DNA of 64,000 nucleotides from Escherichia coli (GTDB taxonomy: Bacteria; Pseudomonadota; Gammaproteobacteria; Enterobacterales; Enterobacteriaceae), in NCBI RefSeq assembly GCF_048403405.1, contig NZ_CP183129.1, one strand, 5' to 3'. Under the pieces are notes generated by a model that saw only the letters and a list, made by a program, of their open reading frames with translations, ran no database searches and was not told the origin of the DNA. The position numbers were made by a program, and so were the translations under genes. This document shows, piece after piece, positions 4,054 through 13,659 of the stretch. How positions within the stretch are numbered: the stretch's first letter is position 1; the number at the start of each line of letters is the position of its first letter.

Positions 4054-6195
4054 TCAAAATTCCATTTTCACCGTGAATTGCACTTCACGCGGATCGCCAA
4101 TCTGATTCCCCAGATTATTTGTGGCGATGGAAGAGGTGTAATACGTTTTATCAAACAGGTTTTTGACGTTTAATTGCAGTGTGACCGGATACTGCAATTT
4201 CATTTTGTATGCGGCGAAGGCATCGGCAACGAAATAGCCTGGCAGATAATAGTCAGCCCCATTGGTTGCCGAACGACGGCTTACGCCATGTCCACCACCG
4301 CCAAACGTCAGTGTGTTATTGCCTGGCATGTTATGAATGTCATAGGTCAGGAATAGCGAACCGGTATGACGAGGAACATTCGGCAATGGTTTCCCTGCAT
4401 AATCAGGATCTTCCAGAACCTTAGCATCGGTATAGCCGTAGCTGGCAATGATATTAATGTTTTCAGTTAATGCTCCCGCAAGGTCGACTTCTACCCCTCT
4501 TGAACGAACGCGGCCTGCCGTTTTGGCGATGGTTTCATCACCAATACTTTCGGTATACAACACGTTACGTTTATGGATATCAAACAGCGCAATATCTGCG
4601 GTGATACCATCGAACAGCTCGAATTTTGCCCCGACTTCGTAAGCATTAGATGATTCCGGTGGAAGATCTCCGATGTAGCTGGCAATTGACGATTGCGGCA
4701 TAAATGTTTGCGAATAATTAGCAAATAAGGATACCGATGGCGTCAGTTTGTAGACTAACCCCAGTTTGGGCGTCCATTGTTCATCGCGGCTGTCAGTATT
4801 GACATTAAAAGGACGGCCTTTACCCGCATACTGCGTGTAATACTGATAGCGGATCCCGGCGACGGCAATCCAGTTATCGGTCAGATAGAGCGCGTCCTGT
4901 GCATAAGCTGAGTAGCTCTCCTGTTTGATCGTCTGATCGCTGTCCGACGCCGAGACAGTTGTGCATTTGCTGGTATTGCCGTAAACAGGGTTGTAGATAT
5001 TGAAATCTTTAGCGTTTTTACAGCGAATCATATCTGTGCGCAGAAGATCATAATATTCATATGACACCCCACCCAGAATCTCATTATAGAACCCAGCAAT
5101 ATCAACATTCCCTTGCAGATCCGCACGAGTAGCATGCATACGCTGGGTAGATCCCTGAGTTGCATCAACACGCCGTGTCAGCGTTCCTGTCGTTGCATCA
5201 TACGCGGTAACACGAGCCTGATTATCGCCGTATTTATCCTGGCTGTAGCTGTAATCAAAGCGCGCTGTCCACTGGCTATTGAGATGATATTCTGCGTTGA
5301 GTTGCGCCAGATCGGACTGACCATCTGTAATATTAAACGGTTCGTCAAAACGTATTTTTCGATCAACGTTTACGGGCTGTTTCGTCGTAAGGTCGAAAAT
5401 CGTTCCACGATCGAACGGAGTTTTATAGTCCCGATGGGAATAGAGCATGGTTACTGTTGCATTATCACCAAACCAGGTGAGTGACGGGGCAATAAATGTA
5501 CTGCGCTCTTTACCGAAGTTTCGCCAGTAATCTTCATCCTGCACTTCCCCCGTCAGGCGGTATGCCAGCTGAGTGCCTTCAATGGGACCTGTGATATCAA
5601 GTTGCCCAGTGCCTCCGCCAAAACTGGAGGACGTGGCTGAGACAGAACCATGGAATGTTTTTTCCGGGCGCTTGGTCACGACGTTAATCAATCCACCAGG
5701 ATCGAGAATGCCATACAGCGTGGAGGCCGGACCTTTTAGCACTTCCACACGTTCTGTGGCGGCGTTGAAACTGCGAGGAAGTACAGTTCGCAGGCCGTTG
5801 GTCATGATGGAGCCATCCCGGTTAGCACCAAACCCACGACGTACAAAGGCGTCCTGAGTTCCGCCTAATGTATTGGTCTGTACCACGTTACTGACGTTAT
5901 AAAGCGCTTCATCCAGCGTCGTTGCATTCTGATTTTCCAGAACCTGATCGCTAACCGTATTGACCACCTGCGGGATATCCAGCATCGGCATATCGGTTAA
6001 TGTCGCCATGGAGGTGCTCAGAGGTTGATAACCATCGGTCGCCTCAGTTGCGGTATTTGCATCCGCTGTAACAGTGATTGTTTCGCCATCTTTGGTCGTT
6101 GCAGTGTCGGTTGCATGAATCATTGGTGCTGCAAAGAGCAGTGAAAAGAGCGCCCGACCTTTGATTCCTGAGAATGAAGGTGTGAACTTAGCCAT
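4054..6195 (-). CDS. TonB-dependent siderophore outer-membrane receptor
   Basis: 713 aa; signal peptide; TonB-box-like ETITVTA; plug and beta-barrel features; C-terminal aromatic residue (ends ...KMEF); not part of the K-12 parE-ygiN junction as I recall it. Confidence 0.9.
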   Translation of the reverse strand: MAKFTPSFSGIKGRALFSLLFAAPMIHATDTATTKDGETITVTADANTATEATDGYQPLSTSMATLTDMPMLDIPQVVNTVSDQVLENQNATTLDEALYNVSNVVQTNTLGGTQDAFVRRGFGANRDGSIMTNGLRTVLPRSFNAATERVEVLKGPASTLYGILDPGGLINVVTKRPEKTFHGSVSATSSSFGGGTGQLDITGPIEGTQLAYRLTGEVQDEDYWRNFGKERSTFIAPSLTWFGDNATVTMLYSHRDYKTPFDRGTIFDLTTKQPVNVDRKIRFDEPFNITDGQSDLAQLNAEYHLNSQWTARFDYSYSQDKYGDNQARVTAYDATTGTLTRRVDATQGSTQRMHATRADLQGNVDIAGFYNEILGGVSYEYYDLLRTDMIRCKNAKDFNIYNPVYGNTSKCTTVSASDSDQTIKQESYSAYAQDALYLTDNWIAVAGIRYQYYTQYAGKGRPFNVNTDSRDEQWTPKLGLVYKLTPSVSLFANYSQTFMPQSSIASYIGDLPPESSNAYEVGAKFELFDGITADIALFDIHKRNVLYTESIGDETIAKTAGRVRSRGVEVDLAGALTENINIIASYGYTDAKVLEDPDYAGKPLPNVPRHTGSLFLTYDIHNMPGNNTLTFGGGGHGVSRRSATNGADYYLPGYFVADAFAAYKMKLQYPVTLQLNVKNLFDKTYYTSSIATNNLGNQIGDPREVQFTVKMEF

Positions 6196-6295
6196 TTAGT
6201 CTGTTATCCCAAAAACTCACGGATTGTCGTGAGTGAAAATTGTTTCTTGTTGCTCACTAAGCACTATCCGTTTGTTATTTCACCATCGGATATGT

Positions 6296-6314
6296 AATTG
6301 AGAATCATTCAACC
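6296..6314. promoter_or_regulatory. Possible Fur box in the divergent receptor/ABC-transporter promoter region
   Basis: gtaattgagaatcattcaa matches about 12 of 19 positions of the Fur consensus GATAATGATAATCATTATC, with a conserved AATCATT core; weak on its own. Confidence 0.3.
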
Positions 6315-6568
6315 ATGCGGTGATGTAGTAGTAAATGAGAAATAACAAAAAATTGCTACATGTGTTTTTATGAGAGGTTAATGCAATTCAATTGATGGTA
6401 ATTTATTAATATTTAATGGTTTTATTTTTATCTTTAAAAATATTTCACCTGTTATTTACCTTGTTTTTGTATGGATTTTAACTTCTTGACTACTACATTT
6501 TGTGGCGTCAAACTCTCAAAGGAGAATGAGTTTTATTTTTGTTTGTCTTTGATTAAGTTGGCGTACAC

Positions 6569-7378
6569 GTGGCACATAACGCAAAAGGGCAGGGGCTGAT
6601 CCTCGACAATGTTTCTGCCGGGTATCACAAGAAAATCATTGTTGATGGTGTTTCTTTCTCCGTTCCCACAGAAAAAATGACCGTTCTGGTTGGGGCAAAC
6701 GGCTGTGGAAAGTCGACGTTGCTCAGCACCATTGCACGTATCTTGCAACCTATGGGCGGCTCGATATTGCTGGATGGTAAAGCGATTCACGAGCAACCAA
6801 CGAAAGCGTTATCCCGTAGACTTGGGATCTTGCCGCAGTCGCCATTATTGCCGGAGGGCTTAACCGTTTATGAACTGGTGTCGCGTGGGCGTTTTCCCTG
6901 GCAGAATTTCATTCGTCAATGGAGCGACGCCGACGAGCAGGCGGTAGAAGAGGCCCTGAAATTAACCGGTACGCAGGAGTTTGCACATTTACCTGTTGAA
7001 AAACTTTCTGGTGGGCAGCGCCAGCGTTGCTGGATTGCGATGGTGTTGGCGCAAAAGACGCCTTATATCCTGCTGGATGAACCCACAACCTGGCTTGATT
7101 TACGTTATCAGGTTGAAATTCTTGAGTTATTACATGATTTAACGCGTCATCACGGGCGTACAGTCGTCGTGGTGTTGCATGATCTGAATTTTGCCGTCAA
7201 TTATGGCGATACGTTGATATTTTTACGCCAGGGGAAAGTGGTGCGTGTGTTGAATGAGGGGGAGCATTGCACGCCTGAGCTGGTAAAAGCTGTCTTTGAC
7301 GTTGATGTTCACGCATCAATAAATCCTCTGACGGGAAAGCCGTTCTTCATGCCGTTTCGTGGTGTAGAAAAAGTATGA
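6569..7378 (+). CDS. ABC transporter ATP-binding protein (iron-siderophore importer type)
   Basis: Walker A GANGCGKST, signature LSGGQRQR, Walker B ILLDEPT; GTG start. Confidence 0.9.
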   Translation: MAHNAKGQGLILDNVSAGYHKKIIVDGVSFSVPTEKMTVLVGANGCGKSTLLSTIARILQPMGGSILLDGKAIHEQPTKALSRRLGILPQSPLLPEGLTVYELVSRGRFPWQNFIRQWSDADEQAVEEALKLTGTQEFAHLPVEKLSGGQRQRCWIAMVLAQKTPYILLDEPTTWLDLRYQVEILELLHDLTRHHGRTVVVVLHDLNFAVNYGDTLIFLRQGKVVRVLNEGEHCTPELVKAVFDVDVHASINPLTGKPFFMPFRGVEKV

Positions 7379-8358
7379 TGCGCACAGGGCTGGTTACTGT
7401 AATTTTCCTCGCCTTACTGCTGGTGGGATGCGTGGTATATCCAGGGATTGGTGCCCGATTTATTGCACCACAAACGGTGTTGCAGGCATTTCTTCATTTT
7501 GAACCGCAAAACTTCGATCACAACGTAATTGTAAGACTCCGTTTGCCGCGTTTAGCGGCAGCATTGCTTACCGGTGCTTCTCTTGGAGTTGCTGGTGCTT
7601 TGTTGCAGGCTGTCATTCGTAACCCATTGGGGGAGCCACATATTTTAGGCTTAAATGCCGGAGCCGCTCTTGCTGTCGTTGCTGCCACTGCGCTTGGGCT
7701 GGCCTTTCCGGTTGGACGCCCACTGCTGGCATCTACGGGCGGCGCGTTATTGTTCCTGTTGATATTGCTGCTTTCCTCCGCAGGGCGTTCAGGGTTAACG
7801 CCAATGAAAGTTACTTTATGCGGCGTGGCGCTATCGGCGTTCGTGTCCTCAATAACGGCTGCAATCCTGATTCTTGACGAACAAACACTGCTGGCGATGC
7901 GGACATGGCTAGCAGGTGATTTAGCGGGGCAGGATTGGGTGACGCTGGGTACGTCCGCCTGGTTTTCTCTGGGGGGGGTTGTGTTAGCCATTTACCTTGC
8001 GCCCTCTCTTAACATGTTGGCACTGGGTGATCGCATGGCGCAGGGGCTGGGCGTCTCGGTACTCCGCACGCGAACATTCACTCTGCTTGCGATCGCGTTG
8101 CTCTGTGGCGCAGCCGTATCGATTGCTGGCCCCATTGGTTTTGTCGGTCTGCTAGTACCGCAGATTGTCAGGCGTCTGGTATCAGCGGATCTGCGCGTTC
8201 TGCTCCCTCTTTCAGCTTGTGTCGGCGCGCTTTTGTTATTACTGGCAGATATTATTGCCCGGACGCTTTTCACGCCCCATGAGTTAGCGACCGGTGTCAT
8301 GACGGCGTTAGTTGGTGCGCCTGTTTTTGTCATTATGGCGACGAGGATGTTCAAATGA
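7375..8358 (+). CDS. ABC transporter permease, FecCD/BtuC family
   Basis: 327 aa polytopic membrane protein; 4-bp overlap with the upstream ATPase gene. Confidence 0.9.
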   Translation: MMRTGLVTVIFLALLLVGCVVYPGIGARFIAPQTVLQAFLHFEPQNFDHNVIVRLRLPRLAAALLTGASLGVAGALLQAVIRNPLGEPHILGLNAGAALAVVAATALGLAFPVGRPLLASTGGALLFLLILLLSSAGRSGLTPMKVTLCGVALSAFVSSITAAILILDEQTLLAMRTWLAGDLAGQDWVTLGTSAWFSLGGVVLAIYLAPSLNMLALGDRMAQGLGVSVLRTRTFTLLAIALLCGAAVSIAGPIGFVGLLVPQIVRRLVSADLRVLLPLSACVGALLLLLADIIARTLFTPHELATGVMTALVGAPVFVIMATRMFK

Positions 8359-9404
8359 GTCGGATAATGAACGTCGGGCTACGTCCACTACGTGTTGGTA
8401 AGTTTTCGACACTGGTACGCCCTAAAAATCTGGTGTTGCTTGGTGGGCTGTTTCTGTTTGCGGTTGGAATACTGATATTCGGTCTGATGCATGGTTCTTT
8501 TTCTGTCCCGGCATCGGAAGTAGGACGAGCGTTGTTTGCTCCAGAAAACGTAAGCACAGACGCACGTTATATTGTGCAGGATATTCGCTTGCCGAGAGTC
8601 ATCATGGCATTGCTATGCGGAGCCATGTTAGGTATGGCGGGGGCCGCGATGCAATCCATTGCGCGTAACGGCCTTGCCGATCCTGGTTTAATCGGCGTCA
8701 AAGAAGGATGTAGCGTGGCGGTGCTGTGGCTGATTTTCCAGTTTCCAATGCTGGGAATGTTCTGGCGTCCAGTGGCTGGTCTTGCTGGTGGCTTGTTGGT
8801 GGCTTTAATCGTGATTTTTTGTGCACGCGATATTTCCCGCCCGCGATTTGTTCTGATTGGTATTGGTGTTTCCTGGTTTTTCGCCGCCGGTATCGGTGTA
8901 TTTATGACCACTGCAGATGTTCGAGATGTACAAACTGCATTGATGTGGTTATCGGGAAGCCTGCATGCAGCTAACTGGATGTTAGTCGGTATTTCAGCCT
9001 GTTGGATGTTGCCAGCCGCTCTTTTATTGCTGTTCACCGCCAGGACGGCGGATATCGCTCTGCTTGGTCATCAGGTTGCAACCGGGTTAGGGGTGAATAG
9101 TTCTCGTCTGGCGTTGTTACGTGTCGCCGCACCAATAATCCTGACAGCCGTCTGCGTTTCGTGTGTTGGTAACATCGGTTTTGTCGGATTGATAGCACCC
9201 CATATATCACGTTTTATTCTACGTGGCGGGCAGACGACATTACTGCTGGGGAGCGCCGTATCGGGGGCGTTGTTAGTCATCCTGGCGGATAGCATTGGTC
9301 GTTTGGCTTTTTTGCCTTTGCAACTGCCTGCCGGAATCATTATTTCATTGATTGGTGGACCATTCTTTTTGCTACTGCTCTGGCAGCGCAGGAACAGTTT
9401 TTAA
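8355..9404 (+). CDS. ABC transporter permease, FecCD/BtuC family (second subunit)
   Basis: 349 aa polytopic membrane protein, paralogous to the preceding permease; 4-bp overlap. Confidence 0.9.
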   Translation: MSRIMNVGLRPLRVGKFSTLVRPKNLVLLGGLFLFAVGILIFGLMHGSFSVPASEVGRALFAPENVSTDARYIVQDIRLPRVIMALLCGAMLGMAGAAMQSIARNGLADPGLIGVKEGCSVAVLWLIFQFPMLGMFWRPVAGLAGGLLVALIVIFCARDISRPRFVLIGIGVSWFFAAGIGVFMTTADVRDVQTALMWLSGSLHAANWMLVGISACWMLPAALLLLFTARTADIALLGHQVATGLGVNSSRLALLRVAAPIILTAVCVSCVGNIGFVGLIAPHISRFILRGGQTTLLLGSAVSGALLVILADSIGRLAFLPLQLPAGIIISLIGGPFFLLLLWQRRNSF

Positions 9405-9414
9405 TGGGAGTTAT

Positions 9415-10362
9415 ATGCGTTTATTTTTTTCTCTGCTGATACTGTTGTCATTCTTTGCCCGCGCGACAGAACCTGTTCAGGTCTTTACTGATGATTTAGG
9501 GCGCAAAGTCACTGTTCCTGCTCATCCAAAGAGAATTGTCTCTTTACACGATCTTGATATCACTATTCCTCTGATTGAGCTCGGTGTACCTCCTGTCGCC
9601 AGCCACGGACGAACCCGGCCTGACGGTAGCCATTTCATTCGATCAGGCGCGTTATTGACAGGTGTCGACTTTGATAATTCATCGATCGCTTTTATTGGCA
9701 CCGCTGATATTGATATTGAAGCGATTGTGGCGGCAAAGCCTGACCTGATCATCACAGAACCGACCCGTAATACGCCCATTGAACAACTGGAAAAAATTGC
9801 GCCCACGGTGAGCATTGATCATCTCAAAGGAGGCGCGCCAGAAATCTACCGCAAGCTGGCAGAACTTACAGGAACGCAGTCGCAGCTGGCGATACTTGAA
9901 CGCCGCTATCAGGCACAAATCAATGCGCTGAAGGCGACGCTGGACAGCCAAAAAATAACGGTATCGGTGATTCAGGCAAATCAGGGAAAAATTAATGTGA
10001 TGCATAGCTATCATTCGCTGGGGCGGGTATTACGCGATGCTGGTTTTCGCTTTCCGCCGCTGATTGAGAGCATTCCTGAAGGTGGGCGAATGGATGTGAG
10101 CGCAGAGCGTTTACCTGAACTGGATGCCGATTTTGTTTTTGCAACCTGGCGCGGTGACACCGGTGGTAAACCTCAGGATGAGCTGGCAGCAATGGAAAAA
10201 GTCATGCCGGGATGGTGTCAGTTTCTGACGGCCTGTCGTTCCGGGCGCTATGTGCTGATTTCTCGTGAAGAGGCGATTTCTAACTCCTTTGCATCTCTGG
10301 GGCTGATGGCTGCGCAGATACAATCACAAATTGCGGGACGACCTCTACCGGAGGCTAAATGA
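9415..10362 (+). CDS. Periplasmic siderophore-binding protein of the ABC importer
   Basis: Start moved to the in-frame ATG at 9415, which has a GGGAG ribosome-binding site and begins a typical signal peptide (MRLFFSLLILLSFFARA); the tracked ORF begins upstream at 9352. Confidence 0.85.
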   Translation: MRLFFSLLILLSFFARATEPVQVFTDDLGRKVTVPAHPKRIVSLHDLDITIPLIELGVPPVASHGRTRPDGSHFIRSGALLTGVDFDNSSIAFIGTADIDIEAIVAAKPDLIITEPTRNTPIEQLEKIAPTVSIDHLKGGAPEIYRKLAELTGTQSQLAILERRYQAQINALKATLDSQKITVSVIQANQGKINVMHSYHSLGRVLRDAGFRFPPLIESIPEGGRMDVSAERLPELDADFVFATWRGDTGGKPQDELAAMEKVMPGWCQFLTACRSGRYVLISREEAISNSFASLGLMAAQIQSQIAGRPLPEAK

Positions 10363-11246
10363 TCCAGAAAGACAAAACGCGGGTTGATATTTATGGTGAG
10401 CGTTTTCGCACTCGCGCGAGTCAGTTAACGCCTGGGTTAAGAACTGTCGCAAGCTACATTAATGAGCATCGTGAAGTGGTACTCGAGCAAACGGCGATGG
10501 AAATTGCGGCCACGTTGAACACTTCCGATGCCACAGTTATCAGGGCTATACAGGCTCTGGGGTTTGCCGGGCTGCGTGATCTGAAACGCACACTGGAACA
10601 GTGGCTTGGTCCAGCCCTTAGTTCCAGCGAAAAGATGTCTACGACGGTGAGTAACTTGACGAGCGATGTTAACACCGCAATCGACTTTGTTCTTGAAGGG
10701 CATTTGTATACTTGTAATGTCCTGTCAGAGCCTGAAAACCGCCACGCGCTTGCGCAAGCTGTAGCGTTGTTGGTGCAGGCACGGCAAGTCGCTATTTTTG
10801 GCATTGGCGCTTCGGGTATCCTGGCGGACTATACCGCACGACTATTCAACCGCATAGGTTTGCCTGCCACGGCACTAAACCGTACGGGTATTGGCCTTGC
10901 CGAGCAACTGATCGCGCTTCAACGTGGCGATGTTCTGATCATGATGGCGCAAAAATCTGCGCACCGGGAAGGGCTGACAACGCTTCGTGAGGCGAGGCGG
11001 CTGGGGATCCCTGTTATTTTGCTGACAAACGCGCTGGATTCACGTTTTAGCAAAGACGCCAGTATCGTGATTCATGTTCCGCGCGGGGATGAAAGGGGGA
11101 AAACGCCACTACATGGTACGGTATTGTTGTGCCTGGAAATGATTGTTTGGTCGGTGGCTTCCGCGATGCCGCAGCGTGCGGTTAAAACCATTAAGCGAAT
11201 TAACGATTTCCATCGGGGTTTGAAAACGGGAAGAAAGAATGGCTAA
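10359..11246 (+). CDS. RpiR/MurR-family transcriptional regulator (helix-turn-helix plus SIS domain)
   Basis: 295 aa; N-terminal HTH and C-terminal sugar-isomerase-like domain pattern; start overlaps the binding-protein stop (ATGA). Confidence 0.8.
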   Translation: MIQKDKTRVDIYGERFRTRASQLTPGLRTVASYINEHREVVLEQTAMEIAATLNTSDATVIRAIQALGFAGLRDLKRTLEQWLGPALSSSEKMSTTVSNLTSDVNTAIDFVLEGHLYTCNVLSEPENRHALAQAVALLVQARQVAIFGIGASGILADYTARLFNRIGLPATALNRTGIGLAEQLIALQRGDVLIMMAQKSAHREGLTTLREARRLGIPVILLTNALDSRFSKDASIVIHVPRGDERGKTPLHGTVLLCLEMIVWSVASAMPQRAVKTIKRINDFHRGLKTGRKNG

Positions 11247-11254
11247 TCTGACCT

Positions 11255-11283
11255 GAGGCCGGTAGCAACACCGGCCTCTTTTC
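11255..11283. terminator. Bidirectional intrinsic terminator between the regulator gene and ygiN
   Basis: Stem gaggccgg/ccggcctc with an 8-nt loop, followed by TTTT. Confidence 0.6.
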
Positions 11284-12466: not shown

Positions 12467-12946
12467 ATGTCAAATATCATATACTTATCAATTAAAGGAA
12501 AAACACAAGGTTTGATCTCTGAGGGCTGTGGTTCGTATGCATCTATTGGTAATAAATATCAAATAAATCATGTGGATGAAATTTTTGTTTTACAGTTCGA
12601 CCATTCTTTAAGTCGAGAATATAATGTAGTGCATCATCCCATAAAATTTTACAAGCCAATAGATAAATCCTCTCCTTTATTAAATGCTGCTCTTTCTGAA
12701 AATGAAGAGTTATCAGCTGTATTTAATTTTTATAGAATTAATTCTGGCGGTTGTATTGAAAGGTTTTACACAATTGAATTGCAAGGGGCATATTTATCGA
12801 ATATTCTGACTTGTTATCCACACTCAATTACACATGCGGGTAATCAACCGGAAGAGGTCATTGTTCTTAATTATAAAAATATAACATGGAAGCACCATAT
12901 CGCGAGTACGGAATCATATAGCTGTTGGGAAGAAAGGATTTTTTAA
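12467..12946 (+). CDS. hcp: Type VI secretion Hcp-family protein (orphan hcp)
   Basis: 159 aa; Hcp-like blocks IYLSIKGKTQGLISEGC, HHPIKFYKPIDKSSPLL and NYKNITWKHH; GGAGA ribosome-binding site 6 nt upstream; AT-rich gene. Confidence 0.8.
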   Translation: MSNIIYLSIKGKTQGLISEGCGSYASIGNKYQINHVDEIFVLQFDHSLSREYNVVHHPIKFYKPIDKSSPLLNAALSENEELSAVFNFYRINSGGCIERFYTIELQGAYLSNILTCYPHSITHAGNQPEEVIVLNYKNITWKHHIASTESYSCWEERIF

Positions 12947-12948
12947 AT

Positions 12949-13659
12949 ATGAAAAGCGATCTCACTATAAAAAATAGATATTGTACAATTCCACAAACGA
13001 AGTTCCGTAAATGGGATGAAATGGACGTTTTACTCTGGAAGTTAGGAAAAAATGATTCGCGTCGCCGTTCAGGAGTATATTATTTAAATGCTTATAAAGA
13101 TGCATATGTACAATATAATAGGGACAAAATAATTAAACATGCATATGCCGCAGGGATTCGTCCAGAGTTATTGGGCGGCGTGGCCTGGATTGAGTCAGGA
13201 GGTATGCCTGAAAATTATAAGTTTCAGATATATGAAACAAAAAGAATGATCGGATCGTTAGATATGCCTGAAAATAAAACATCATTTGGCTCAATGGGTA
13301 TACAAATACGAACCGCAGCGATTACTCTAGGCCTTGACCCTTCAGAATTAACTACCAGAAATCAGTTAGAGTTAGCGACATGCCTGATGGAAGATGATTT
13401 TACCTTTAAAATTGCTGCTACTCATTTAAGAGATCTTGCCCTTTTTGATTATCCCTCTTCGGCAACACTGTATATGACGAATGAGCAGTATATTATGGCT
13501 GGTATTAGATATAATCGTGGTGTTGAACGAGATTTGGGTTTTTTTATTTATTTAATTAATAATTTGCCTGCGCGTGATACAGATGATTATAAATTCATCT
13601 CTTATGGTATGAGGTTGTTAGAGATTAGAGAACATATCAAAAAATTGATCAATGAGTAA
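12949..13659 (+). CDS. Hypothetical protein with lysozyme/lytic-transglycosylase-like motifs; candidate Hcp-associated cell-wall-targeting effector
   Basis: Start set at the ATG at 12949 (GAAAGGA ribosome-binding site) 2 nt after the hcp stop; motifs WIESGG, FGSMGIQI and IRYNRG resemble the soluble-lytic-transglycosylase E-S / GLMQ / AYNAG pattern; function is inferred. Confidence 0.5.
   Translation: MKSDLTIKNRYCTIPQTKFRKWDEMDVLLWKLGKNDSRRRSGVYYLNAYKDAYVQYNRDKIIKHAYAAGIRPELLGGVAWIESGGMPENYKFQIYETKRMIGSLDMPENKTSFGSMGIQIRTAAITLGLDPSELTTRNQLELATCLMEDDFTFKIAATHLRDLALFDYPSSATLYMTNEQYIMAGIRYNRGVERDLGFFIYLINNLPARDTDDYKFISYGMRLLEIREHIKKLINE

Follow-up and report, generated by a model that had tools for sequence, protein, structure and literature searches.

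The regulator gene at positions 10359–11246 of the 64,000-nucleotide stretch of Escherichia coli DNA analysed here (the window) is fitR, which codes for the iron-importer repressor characterised in 2008. Since deletion, over-expression, reporter and EMSA experiments were published in that year, the finding is a re-discovery; what is added to the earlier work is a candidate operator, a linkage to siderophore receptors across taxa and an altered ligand pocket. The evidence as a whole is best explained by FitR being a locus-specific auto-repressor of a xenosiderophore-type importer that acts through half-site operators and responds to a non-canonical SIS effector, a reading that we consider likely.

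The ABC-importer locus in the window, located between parE and ygiN, corresponds to the published E. coli fit system (fitA, fitBCDE, fitR), and the layout of its six genes is identical to that of strain i484, whose FitR is encoded by the same gene (Ouyang & Isaacson 2006, 2008). Open reading frames, annotation and protein families delineated a divergently transcribed TonB receptor gene and one operon coding for an ATPase, two permeases, a binding protein and the regulator. The receptor gene fitA (4054–6195, minus strand; RefSeq annotation) encodes a TonB-dependent siderophore receptor of 713 amino acids that is similar to FhuA, FoxA and FhuE and scored 372 bits against NCBIfam TIGR01783, exceeding the cutoff of that family. 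The operon on the plus strand comprises fitB (6569–7378), coding for the ABC ATPase, fitC (7375–8358) and fitD (8367–9404, RefSeq start), coding for FecCD-type permeases, fitE (9415–10362, RefSeq start), coding for a periplasmic siderophore-binding protein of the Peripla_BP_2 type, and fitR (10359–11246, ATG start), coding for a 295-amino-acid repressor with HTH_6 and SIS domains; the assignments of fitB and fitC rest on ORF, RefSeq and profile data, those of fitD and fitE on RefSeq and profile data, and that of fitR on ORF, Pfam and the structure model. In line with this, all 18 published fit primers mapped to the expected genes in the window, in the expected order and orientations, 11 of them without mismatch and the remainder with 1–3 mismatches. 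These included the fitA qPCR primers (5375–5451, zero mismatch), primers in fitB (6726–6812), fitC, fitD and fitE, and the fitR primers (10359–10381, 10416–10433, 10462–10549 and 11226–11243). The three mismatches in the N-terminal fitR2 primer and the one or two in the fitC and fitE primers indicate that the locus differs from that of strain i484 by allelic variation only. No gene for an AraC-type HTH regulator or an ECF sigma/anti-sigma pair was found between parE and ygiN in the ORFs, annotation and profiles, and the initial annotation was correct in regarding this type of regulator as unusual for an iron-uptake locus.

The start codon of fitR (ATG, 10359–10361) overlaps the fitE stop codon (TGA, 10360–10362) as ATGA in the context GGAGGCTAAATGATCC, with a GGAGG Shine-Dalgarno sequence 4 nt upstream of the ATG. 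The same 4-nt overlap, which the initial annotation had read correctly from the sequence, was present in 21 of 46 full-importer loci of other genera, and a gap of 2–15 nt was found in 16 more; the overlap recurs in other genera and is no chance feature of one strain. Directly downstream of fitR we found a terminator hairpin, GAGGCCGGT-AGCAAC-ACCGGCCTC followed by TTTT (11255–11282, plus strand; fold dG −25.5 kcal/mol, z −4.5), which closes the fitBCDER operon and faces the convergent ygiN. A simple terminator scan did not pick it up because its tail has only four T; the strong hairpin with its TTTT tail confirms the proposed position of fitR at the end of the operon.

The proposed helix-turn-helix plus SIS architecture, already noted by the 2008 authors (PMC2593036), was borne out at the levels of the ORF, which RefSeq labels 'MurR/RpiR family transcriptional regulator', of Pfam (HTH_6, PF01418, residues 14–81, E 3.6e-10; SIS, PF01380, residues 138–246, E 2.4e-13) and of an AlphaFold2 model (mean pLDDT 92.3) whose N-terminal part is a helical bundle. 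Among solved proteins, the best sequence and structure match of FitR was RccR, the KDPG-responsive RpiR-family regulator of Pseudomonas (PDB 8JU9/8K3B), although the two are only about 22% identical. In the Foldseek search, RccR–KDPG and NanR–ManNAc-6P gave the best matches, RccR being followed by the NanR proteins of Vibrio and Streptococcus, whereas MurR ranked lower and matched over the SIS domain only; the SIS domain also matched phosphosugar isomerases. NanR (Vibrio vulnificus, Streptococcus pneumoniae) and MurR (E. coli) share family and fold with FitR and are likewise locus-specific repressors, released by a catabolic intermediate, but their effectors are amino-sugar phosphates and their targets sugar catabolism genes. 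Similarly, the KDPG-responsive Pseudomonas regulators RccR and HexR share the HTH_6 and SIS fold with FitR and control central carbon metabolism, whereas the regulon of FitR is an iron importer.

That the regulator affects both the receptor and the ABC promoters, as the initial annotation had implied, has already been published: in strain i484, a fitR knock-out, over-expression, lacZ fusions in both directions and EMSA established FitR as an auto-repressor of the two divergent promoters, those of fitA and of fitBCDE-fitR, and the intergenic fragment was bound in EMSA with specific competitor (PMC2593036). In the same study, fit expression was Fur-dependent and the action of FitR was independent of iron and Fur, its effects were small (about 1.5- to 3-fold in LB), and the work on the fur/fitR double mutant gave 23-fold, 2.2-fold and 52-fold effects (PMC2593036). 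The EMSA probe was the whole fragment of roughly 350 bp (PMC2593036). Mapping of the promoter primers (6217–6238 and 6552–6575) placed the fragment used for EMSA and lacZ fusions at 6217–6575, which covers most of the divergent fitA/fitB control region (6196–6568).

A generic sigma-70 scan returned zero promoters in the fitA/fitB intergenic region, and conservation is thus the sole basis for the promoter elements proposed here. PfitA would consist of a −35 element TTTACT and a −10 element TTGAAT (6307–6312, minus strand), and PfitB of a −35 element TTGACT, a 17-nt spacer and a −10-like CAAACT (6509–6514). A Fur-box-like block, GTAATTGAGAATCATTCAA (6294–6312), overlaps the −10 element of PfitA; it shows little or no variation among Enterobacterales loci and is missing from the alpha-proteobacterial ones. 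A second such block, GAGAATGAGTTTTATTTTT (6523–6541), lies just downstream of the −10 element of PfitB; here, AAAGAGAATGAGATTTATTT is the block conserved in Enterobacterales loci and absent in Xanthobacter. When compared directly, both blocks match the Fur consensus at 12 of 19 positions, and a search for the 19-bp consensus with up to three mismatches gave zero sites in the window. Rfam yielded nothing credible in the control region, and RNAalifold predicted one short helix in the fitA leader and nothing more.

Two 12-mers stood out in the control region. The first, TGTAGTAGTAAA (6324–6335; TTTACTACTACA on the fitA strand), covers the −35 element of PfitA, was invariant across 15 genera in a phylogenetic footprint and contains TGTAGT; on the receptor side, 64 of 65 control regions matched TGTAGTAGT exactly, and the remaining one had a single mismatch. 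The second, TTGACTACTACA (6486–6497), covers the −35 element of PfitB, was invariant in every full-importer locus compared and contains ACTACA. Both were conserved in about 65 loci of gamma-, alpha- and beta-proteobacteria in which the surrounding intergenic DNA could not be aligned. The invariant 12-mer element itself is non-palindromic. At PfitA, a partner half-site gCTACA (6355–6360) gives the arrangement TGTAGT-N25-(A)CTACA. Of the 64 control regions that offered an anchor, 39 have an ACTACA-like hexamer with a start-to-start offset of +31 or +30 (an exact one in 29 of them), and nearly all receptor-only loci are among these 39; at the sequence level, the candidate operator is thus pseudo-palindromic, with ACTACA at PfitB, and conserved across loci. 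No fixed distance to a partner half-site was found on the fitB side, where some Kluyvera loci carry TGTAGT-N10-ACTACA and others none. TGTAGT/ACTACA with variable linkers is also the experimentally defined site of RccR, and R53 and R56 of RccR align with R62 and Q65 of FitR, both of which are invariant and lie in the recognition helix (approximately T55–G68). Unlike the situation described for RccR, E. coli fit has two invariant sites about 160 bp apart, one per divergent promoter.

We infer from these comparisons that the TGTAGT/ACTACA 12-mers are the candidate FitR operator. It could be argued that they are extended promoter elements, or sites of an unlinked factor, and that FitR binds elsewhere in the intergenic region: TTGACT and TTTACT resemble −35 elements with a 17-nt spacing to −10-like hexamers, and the 9-mer core is not rare, since another 19 copies turned up in the 1.5 Mb of loci retrieved, most of them at a single conserved position within the receptor coding sequence. 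However, six additional bases that a −35 hexamer does not need are invariant, the 12-mers agree with the half-site demonstrated for the closest characterised relative of FitR, and the motif accompanies FitR-type genes over three proteobacterial classes, in full-importer as well as receptor-only loci. It was kept in Xanthobacter, which lacks the Fur-like blocks, and in Orrella, where the FitR relative is 45% identical, while a relative of 32% identity was associated with the compact palindrome TGTAGTAGTGACTACA; the conserved motif thus appears to track FitR rather than Fur, and we regard assignment of the 12-mers to the promoter or another factor as improbable. Given its 19 extra copies, the 9-mer alone is too unspecific to define a wider regulon, and its use as a marker for one was dropped. 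Knowledge of the operator would offer a direct handle for reporter constructs and for finding the regulon.

RccR holds the phosphate of KDPG with four serines (S139, S183, S185 and S188). Two independent alignments showed that FitR keeps the first of these (S152) and carries A197, K199 and H202 in place of RccR S183, S185 and S188, so that of the Ser/Thr phosphate clamp of the MurR/RpiR family (the GxGxS and SxSGxS/T loops) only S152 is left. The SxSGxS/T loop, which is retained in the aligned NanR of V. vulnificus, was missing from all 95 full-length cluster representatives closest to FitR (28–71% identity). In the AlphaFold2 model, residues 197–202 form a loop joining a strand and a helix, and the pocket is lined by S152, R161, R165 and the loop A197–H202. 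Among 39 non-redundant orthologues, residues 189–196, Q198, H202, E204, S152, R161 and R165 were invariant, compared with 25% of positions overall. The initial annotation had left open whether a sugar-phosphate signal or an unusual ligand is involved, and had named a lack of conserved ligand-binding residues in the SIS alignment as a counter-argument; the alignment bears this out in part, with one clamp serine conserved and three replaced. Judged by its residues, the pocket appears unlike those that normally bind sugar phosphates: the proposed sugar-phosphate link is not supported, and the unusual ligand appears more likely, being in better agreement with the conservation of the remodelled pocket, which ranks with the least variable stretches of FitR. 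The loss of the phosphate clamp together with this strong constraint indicates that the effector is most likely no ordinary sugar phosphate. K199, H202 and R203 could nevertheless bind phosphate, and a phosphorylated effector is conceivable.

Two other views of the SIS domain have to be weighed. FitR may be a HexR/RccR-like sensor of a sugar phosphate of central metabolism, such as KDPG, that couples the importer to carbon status, in line with the phosphosugar ligands of all its closest solved relatives, with a DNA half-site identical to that of the KDPG sensor RccR, with the invariance of S152, R161 and R165, the latter two aligning with RccR H148 and R152, and with the PstS-like (phosphate-binding-protein-like) genes that adjoin fitR in some variant loci. 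The replacement of three of the four clamping serines, the absence of the SxSGxS/T motif from all nearest representatives and the strict association of fitR with siderophore receptors rather than with sugar-metabolism genes argue against such a sensor and make it unlikely. Alternatively, the SIS domain may serve oligomerisation only, FitR being a constant negative-feedback damper on a Fur-switched operon. This would agree with the degenerate phosphate-binding motif, with the autoregulation implied by operon membership and with published repression that is weak and iron-independent and for which no inducer was reported (PMC2593036), and part of the conserved pocket stretch could serve folding or a subunit interface; however, conservation across genera at the pocket loop, S152, R161 and R165 ranks with the highest in FitR, which is unexpected for a vestigial site, and an effector-free FitR is in our view quite doubtful. 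No ligand of FitR was reported in the literature searched, and, apart from the 2008 paper, searches on the substrate of Fit and on further siderophore-receptor regulators of the RpiR type yielded nothing. As the pocket departs from the standard phosphosugar type, ligand screening should cover siderophores and other anions and not sugar phosphates alone.

In the favoured model of a locus-specific auto-repressor, FitR, probably a dimer or tetramer like its relatives, would recognise TGTAGT/ACTACA half-sites, with one invariant copy over each −35 element and the extra partner 31 bp away at PfitA, while Fur would occupy separate boxes over the −10/+1 region of each promoter. Binding of the two repressors to different sites would account for the multiplicative effects published for FitR and Fur. 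The SIS domain would provide a strongly constrained effector pocket in which the canonical phosphate clamp is no longer present; a small anionic molecule linked to the transported substrate is a plausible effector and would add substrate-dependent de-repression to the iron control. We propose by analogy that FitR follows the one-component xenosiderophore-sensor logic of Salmonella FoxR. FoxR is described as an AraC-type regulator of ferrioxamine uptake (PMC9804782); like FitR, it is a small cytoplasmic regulator encoded beside a hydroxamate-type receptor and acting on top of Fur control, whereas FitR is a repressor with a different fold. FecIR also controls an E. coli iron importer beyond Fur, in a substrate-specific manner (PMC2593036), but is a sigma/anti-sigma pair signalling from the receptor, and the fit locus encodes nothing of that kind.

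FitR-type genes accompanied TonB-dependent siderophore receptors even at loci without ABC genes, and in the receptor-only loci carrying the motif the receptor was only about 35% identical to FitA. Three distant relatives (P0127, P0136 and P0139) either lay on short contigs or had gene neighbourhoods that told us little. More tentatively, and with less confidence than we place in the model for the locus itself, FitR may found a distinct and widespread RpiR/SIS subfamily, characterised by a TSDATV(I/V)R helix, TGTAGT/ACTACA operators and a lost clamp, that serves TonB-dependent (xeno)siderophore uptake in gamma-, alpha- and beta-proteobacteria and senses the imported siderophore or another non-phosphosugar. 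If true, this subfamily would induce iron piracy genes in a substrate-specific manner through a one-component mechanism based on a repressor, and sensing of a siderophore or other non-phosphosugar would extend the SIS fold to a new class of ligands. Within E. coli, the fit locus was present in 1870 of 5426 complete genomes (about a third) and is enriched in extraintestinal and adherent-invasive strains; its Klebsiella counterpart is iron-induced.

Upstream of fitR lie genes for an ABC ATPase, two FecCD permeases and a Peripla_BP_2-type binding protein (fitBCDE), and a gene coding for an FhuA/FoxA-like TonB-dependent receptor (fitA) is divergent from this importer operon. The window DNA is E. 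coli chromosome, with several complete genomes 100% identical to it, and the six fit genes are inserted between parE and ygiN/mdaB. Because the full block was present in 1870 of 5426 complete E. coli genomes and the flanks in nearly all, fit is an accessory island. The six-gene locus is the published fit system. All primers in Table 2 of the 2008 study of strain i484 by Ouyang and Isaacson were mapped onto the window: the fitA, fitB, fitD and fitR qPCR primers and the fitR cloning primers matched exactly, the remaining ones showed 1-3 mismatches, and every primer fell in the expected gene and orientation, the 'fit promoter' amplicon corresponding to 6217-6575. In i484, both the fitA- and the fitB-lacZ fusion are repressed when FitR is over-expressed, and transcript levels fall; repression is relieved in a fitR transposon mutant and returns upon complementation; and purified FitR shifts the intergenic fragment in EMSA, with unlabelled fragment competing (PMC2593036). 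This experimentally established repression does not need iron and is Fur-independent (23-fold in the fur, 2.2-fold in the fitR and 52-fold in the double mutant); the paper stops short of the exact FitR and Fur sites (PMC2593036). The deletion, over-expression, reporter-fusion and EMSA experiments proposed in the initial annotation are those of this paper, and the gene it singled out is a re-discovery of one already known since 2008. A 2018 paper assigned no substrate to fit, and a literature search for later work found nothing after it.

For pBAD-fitR1, the published complementation plasmid, the forward primer (10416-10433) begins at fitR codon 20, and the next in-frame ATG is codon 47 (10497). 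If the EcoRI site of pBAD22 lies upstream of the vector ATG, the pBAD-fitR1 product would be N-terminally truncated. The published FitR size of 28 kDa is below the ~33 kDa expected for 295 aa plus tag.

The fitR ORF (10359-11246, + strand) starts with ATG and encodes 295 aa. In line with the initial description of a helix-turn-helix plus SIS regulator, Pfam assigned HTH_6 (residues 14-81, E 3.6e-10) and SIS (residues 138-246, E 2.4e-13) domains, and an AlphaFold2 model built with 66 relatives as input was confident (mean pLDDT 92.3). The top solved structures matching this model were full-length RpiR-family regulators, namely the Pseudomonas regulator RccR with KDPG, V. vulnificus NanR with ManNAc-6P and S. 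pneumoniae NanR; E. coli MurR ranked lower and matched with the SIS domain alone. Both domains and the fold thus place FitR in the MurR/RpiR family. The claimed overlap with the binding-protein gene was seen in the sequence, as the fitR ATG and the TGA of the upstream ORF share ATGA (with GGAGG 4 bases 5' of the ATG), and the upstream ABC genes and a strong hairpin plus T-run 3' of fitR (dG -25.5 kcal/mol, z -4.5) support its place as the last gene of the importer operon. The initial observation thus held in every detail.

A scan of one genome per species yielded 75 loci with a FitR relative, and tblastn with the six Fit proteins revealed two architectures among them. The full fitA / fitBCDE-fitR layout was found in Escherichia, Enterobacter, Kosakonia, Citrobacter, Klebsiella, Raoultella and Kluyvera, as well as in some Erwinia, Rosenbergiella and the alpha-proteobacterium Xanthobacter (FitR 53% identical). 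In the reduced layout (Pantoea, Serratia, Rahnella, other Erwinia and some Enterobacter; loci L024, L036, L047 and about 25 others, e.g. L036:6271-10870), a FitR orthologue (65-68% identical) is divergent from a different TonB receptor, ~35% identical to FitA, and ABC permease or ATPase genes were not detected. The sole reduced locus examined in detail, L036 of Pantoea agglomerans, has a ferrichrome/ferrioxamine-type binding protein after the receptor. Among more distant relatives, that of the beta-proteobacterium Orrella (45% identical) is the last gene of a receptor-ABC-binding protein operon, a 40%-identical one lies directly 5' of a TonB receptor gene, and a 32%-identical one is flanked by Rrf2 regulator and TonB receptor genes. 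Since fitR occurs in receptor loci in which no ABC genes were detected and its distant relatives lie beside receptors, its stable partner is the siderophore receptor, neither the ABC importer nor genes of sugar metabolism. Many full loci, though not all, keep fitE and fitR tightly joined: of 46, 21 have the ATGA overlap and a further 16 have gaps of 2-15 nt. Three genes intervene in two loci, and fitR stands alone in the reduced layout.

Extra genes separate the binding protein gene and fitR in some fit-like loci (L017:6926-9992, L018 and L086:8010-9946). Those of L017 encode a putative PepSY-type membrane protein (judged by eye, with no NCBIfam match) and two paralogous PstS-like (PBP_like_2) proteins, seemingly without signal peptides; Orrella (L086) likewise has a PstS-like pair. 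Two distant FitR relatives (42% and 32% identical) adjoin Rrf2-family genes (L081:963-2384 and L084:1291-5133), one of them also adjoining a TonB receptor gene. Rrf2 proteins include iron regulators of alpha-proteobacteria, so these loci may again combine an iron-status regulator with a FitR-type one, though with a different partner.

When fitA-fitB intergenic regions from 15 genera were aligned, little similarity was seen beyond four blocks: a fitA-side Fur-like block GTAATTGAGAATCATTCAA (6294-6312), a 12-mer TGTAGTAGTAAA ~11 nt after it (6324-6335), a fitB-side 12-mer TTGACTACTACA (6486-6497) followed by a -10-like hexamer, and after this a second Fur-like block AAAGAGAATGAG(A/T)TTTATTT (6523-6541). 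The 12-mers are mutual reverse complements save one base, and each spans a -35-like hexamer set 17 nt from a -10-like one. The core TGTAGTAGT was exact on the receptor side in 64 of 65 control regions, including every reduced-layout locus, and had one mismatch in the 65th; ACTACTACA was present on the fitB side in all full loci. Xanthobacter and a related MAG keep the 12-mers and lack the Fur-like blocks. The DNA upstream of the Orrella receptor reads TGTAGTAGT ... TTTACTACTACA-N-Fur-like box, and the 32%-identical relative has a compact palindrome TGTAGTAGTGACTACA before its own gene and TGTAGTAGT before the neighbouring receptor gene. The sites of RccR, the best solved FitR relative, are pseudo-palindromes of TGTAGT and ACTACA, separated by 3 nt in a 15-bp site or by 16 nt in the 28-bp consensus site; half-site mutation abolishes binding. 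A less likely reading is that the 12-mers, which lie over -35-like hexamers, are not FitR sites; because the motif survives without the Fur-like blocks, follows distant relatives and matches the proven RccR site, we tie it to FitR rather than to Fur or RNA polymerase alone, and infer that the 12-mers are a candidate FitR operator, which is new. At the DNA level, FitR would work like RccR and HexR. On the PfitA side, a partner half-site (A/g)CTACA at 31 bp start-to-start (30 in four loci) was found in 39 of 64 anchorable regions (29 exact), with no conservation of the sequence in between; in the window, the pair is TGTAGT (6324-6329)-N25-GCTACA (6355-6360). Reduced-layout loci carry the same TGTAGTAGTAAA-N19-ACTACA site plus a Fur-like box, and the fitB side of the control regions showed no partner half-site at constant distance. 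Erwinia typographi (L039:9680-9990) has two motif copies 5' of fitR, yet no detectable intact FitA-like receptor nearby; one copy is TGTAGT-N14-GCTACA, a spacing equal to that of the RccR site at P. aeruginosa aceA.

In a direct comparison, the Fur-like blocks matched 12 of 19 positions of the 19-bp Fur consensus, and none came within three mismatches of it. Where they lie, how well Enterobacterales conserve them and the published Fur dependence make them probable Fur boxes. Each promoter would then be bound by two repressors at separate sites, one over -35 and the other over -10/+1, which would account for the published independent, multiplicative effects. A CAGGGCAATGAT block, conserved in the receptor leader of most of the 15 aligned genera (e.g. 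L013:5685-5822) and diverged in Escherichia (GTGAGCAACAAG), could act as another Fur-like site or as an sRNA target. The fitA 5' leader also contains two hairpins (6215-6234 and 6265-6292, - strand sense): TATCCG...CGGATA directly past the likely start site, with some compensatory changes across genera, and ACTCACG-GATTGT-CGTGAGT followed by TTTTT, ~15 nt ahead of the start codon. At this position, other genera also carry a hairpin and T-run, though the hairpin sequence differs, an arrangement suggestive of an attenuator or stabilising element.

Four serines of RccR (S139, S183, S185 and S188), described as conserved in the RccR paper, bind the KDPG phosphate, and H148, R152, H164, K270 and R277 contact the sugar. 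A pairwise HMMER alignment and a 98-sequence MAFFT alignment agreed in mapping these residues onto FitR. The ligand-binding residues, by which the initial annotation had proposed to judge the SIS domain, gave a divided answer: S139 is kept as S152, and the other three serines are replaced by A197, K199 and H202, so that FitR fails the phosphate-clamp feature of the MurR/RpiR family; V. vulnificus NanR has S/S/S/T at the four positions. RccR H148 and R152 correspond to R161 and R165. In the model, residues 197-202 form the loop between strand 192-196 and helix 203-215, a structurally equivalent position. Among representatives of clusters formed at 50% identity, none of the 95 full-length ones closest to FitR (28-71% identical) had SxSGxS/T; most carry A-Y-G-x-x-Y-x-E instead, and all share the recognition helix TSDATV(I/V)R. 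This absence argues against a conventional phosphosugar sensor, a rival reading to which K199, H202 and R203 lend something, as they might still hold a phosphate. The lost serines would also suit a regulator without an effector; among 39 non-redundant orthologues, residues 189-196 (RGDVLIMM), Q198, H202, E204, S152, R161 and R165 are invariant, against 73 of 295 positions across the whole of FitR, and we infer from this conservation that the pocket is not decaying and is likely a working effector site with altered chemistry. The pocket is still basic, so the effector is probably an anion, though the usual phosphate clamp is absent. FitR could belong to an RpiR subfamily that is dedicated to receptors and binds something other than a phosphosugar, and in logic it may resemble Salmonella FoxR (PMC9804782), a substrate-responsive regulator of a xenosiderophore receptor.

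Elsewhere in the window, a gene for a type VI secretion protein of the Hcp family lies with a neighbouring hypothetical gene between mdaB and ygiZ (12467-13659). The pair seems to be a small orphan insertion, with no T6SS cluster visible nearby.
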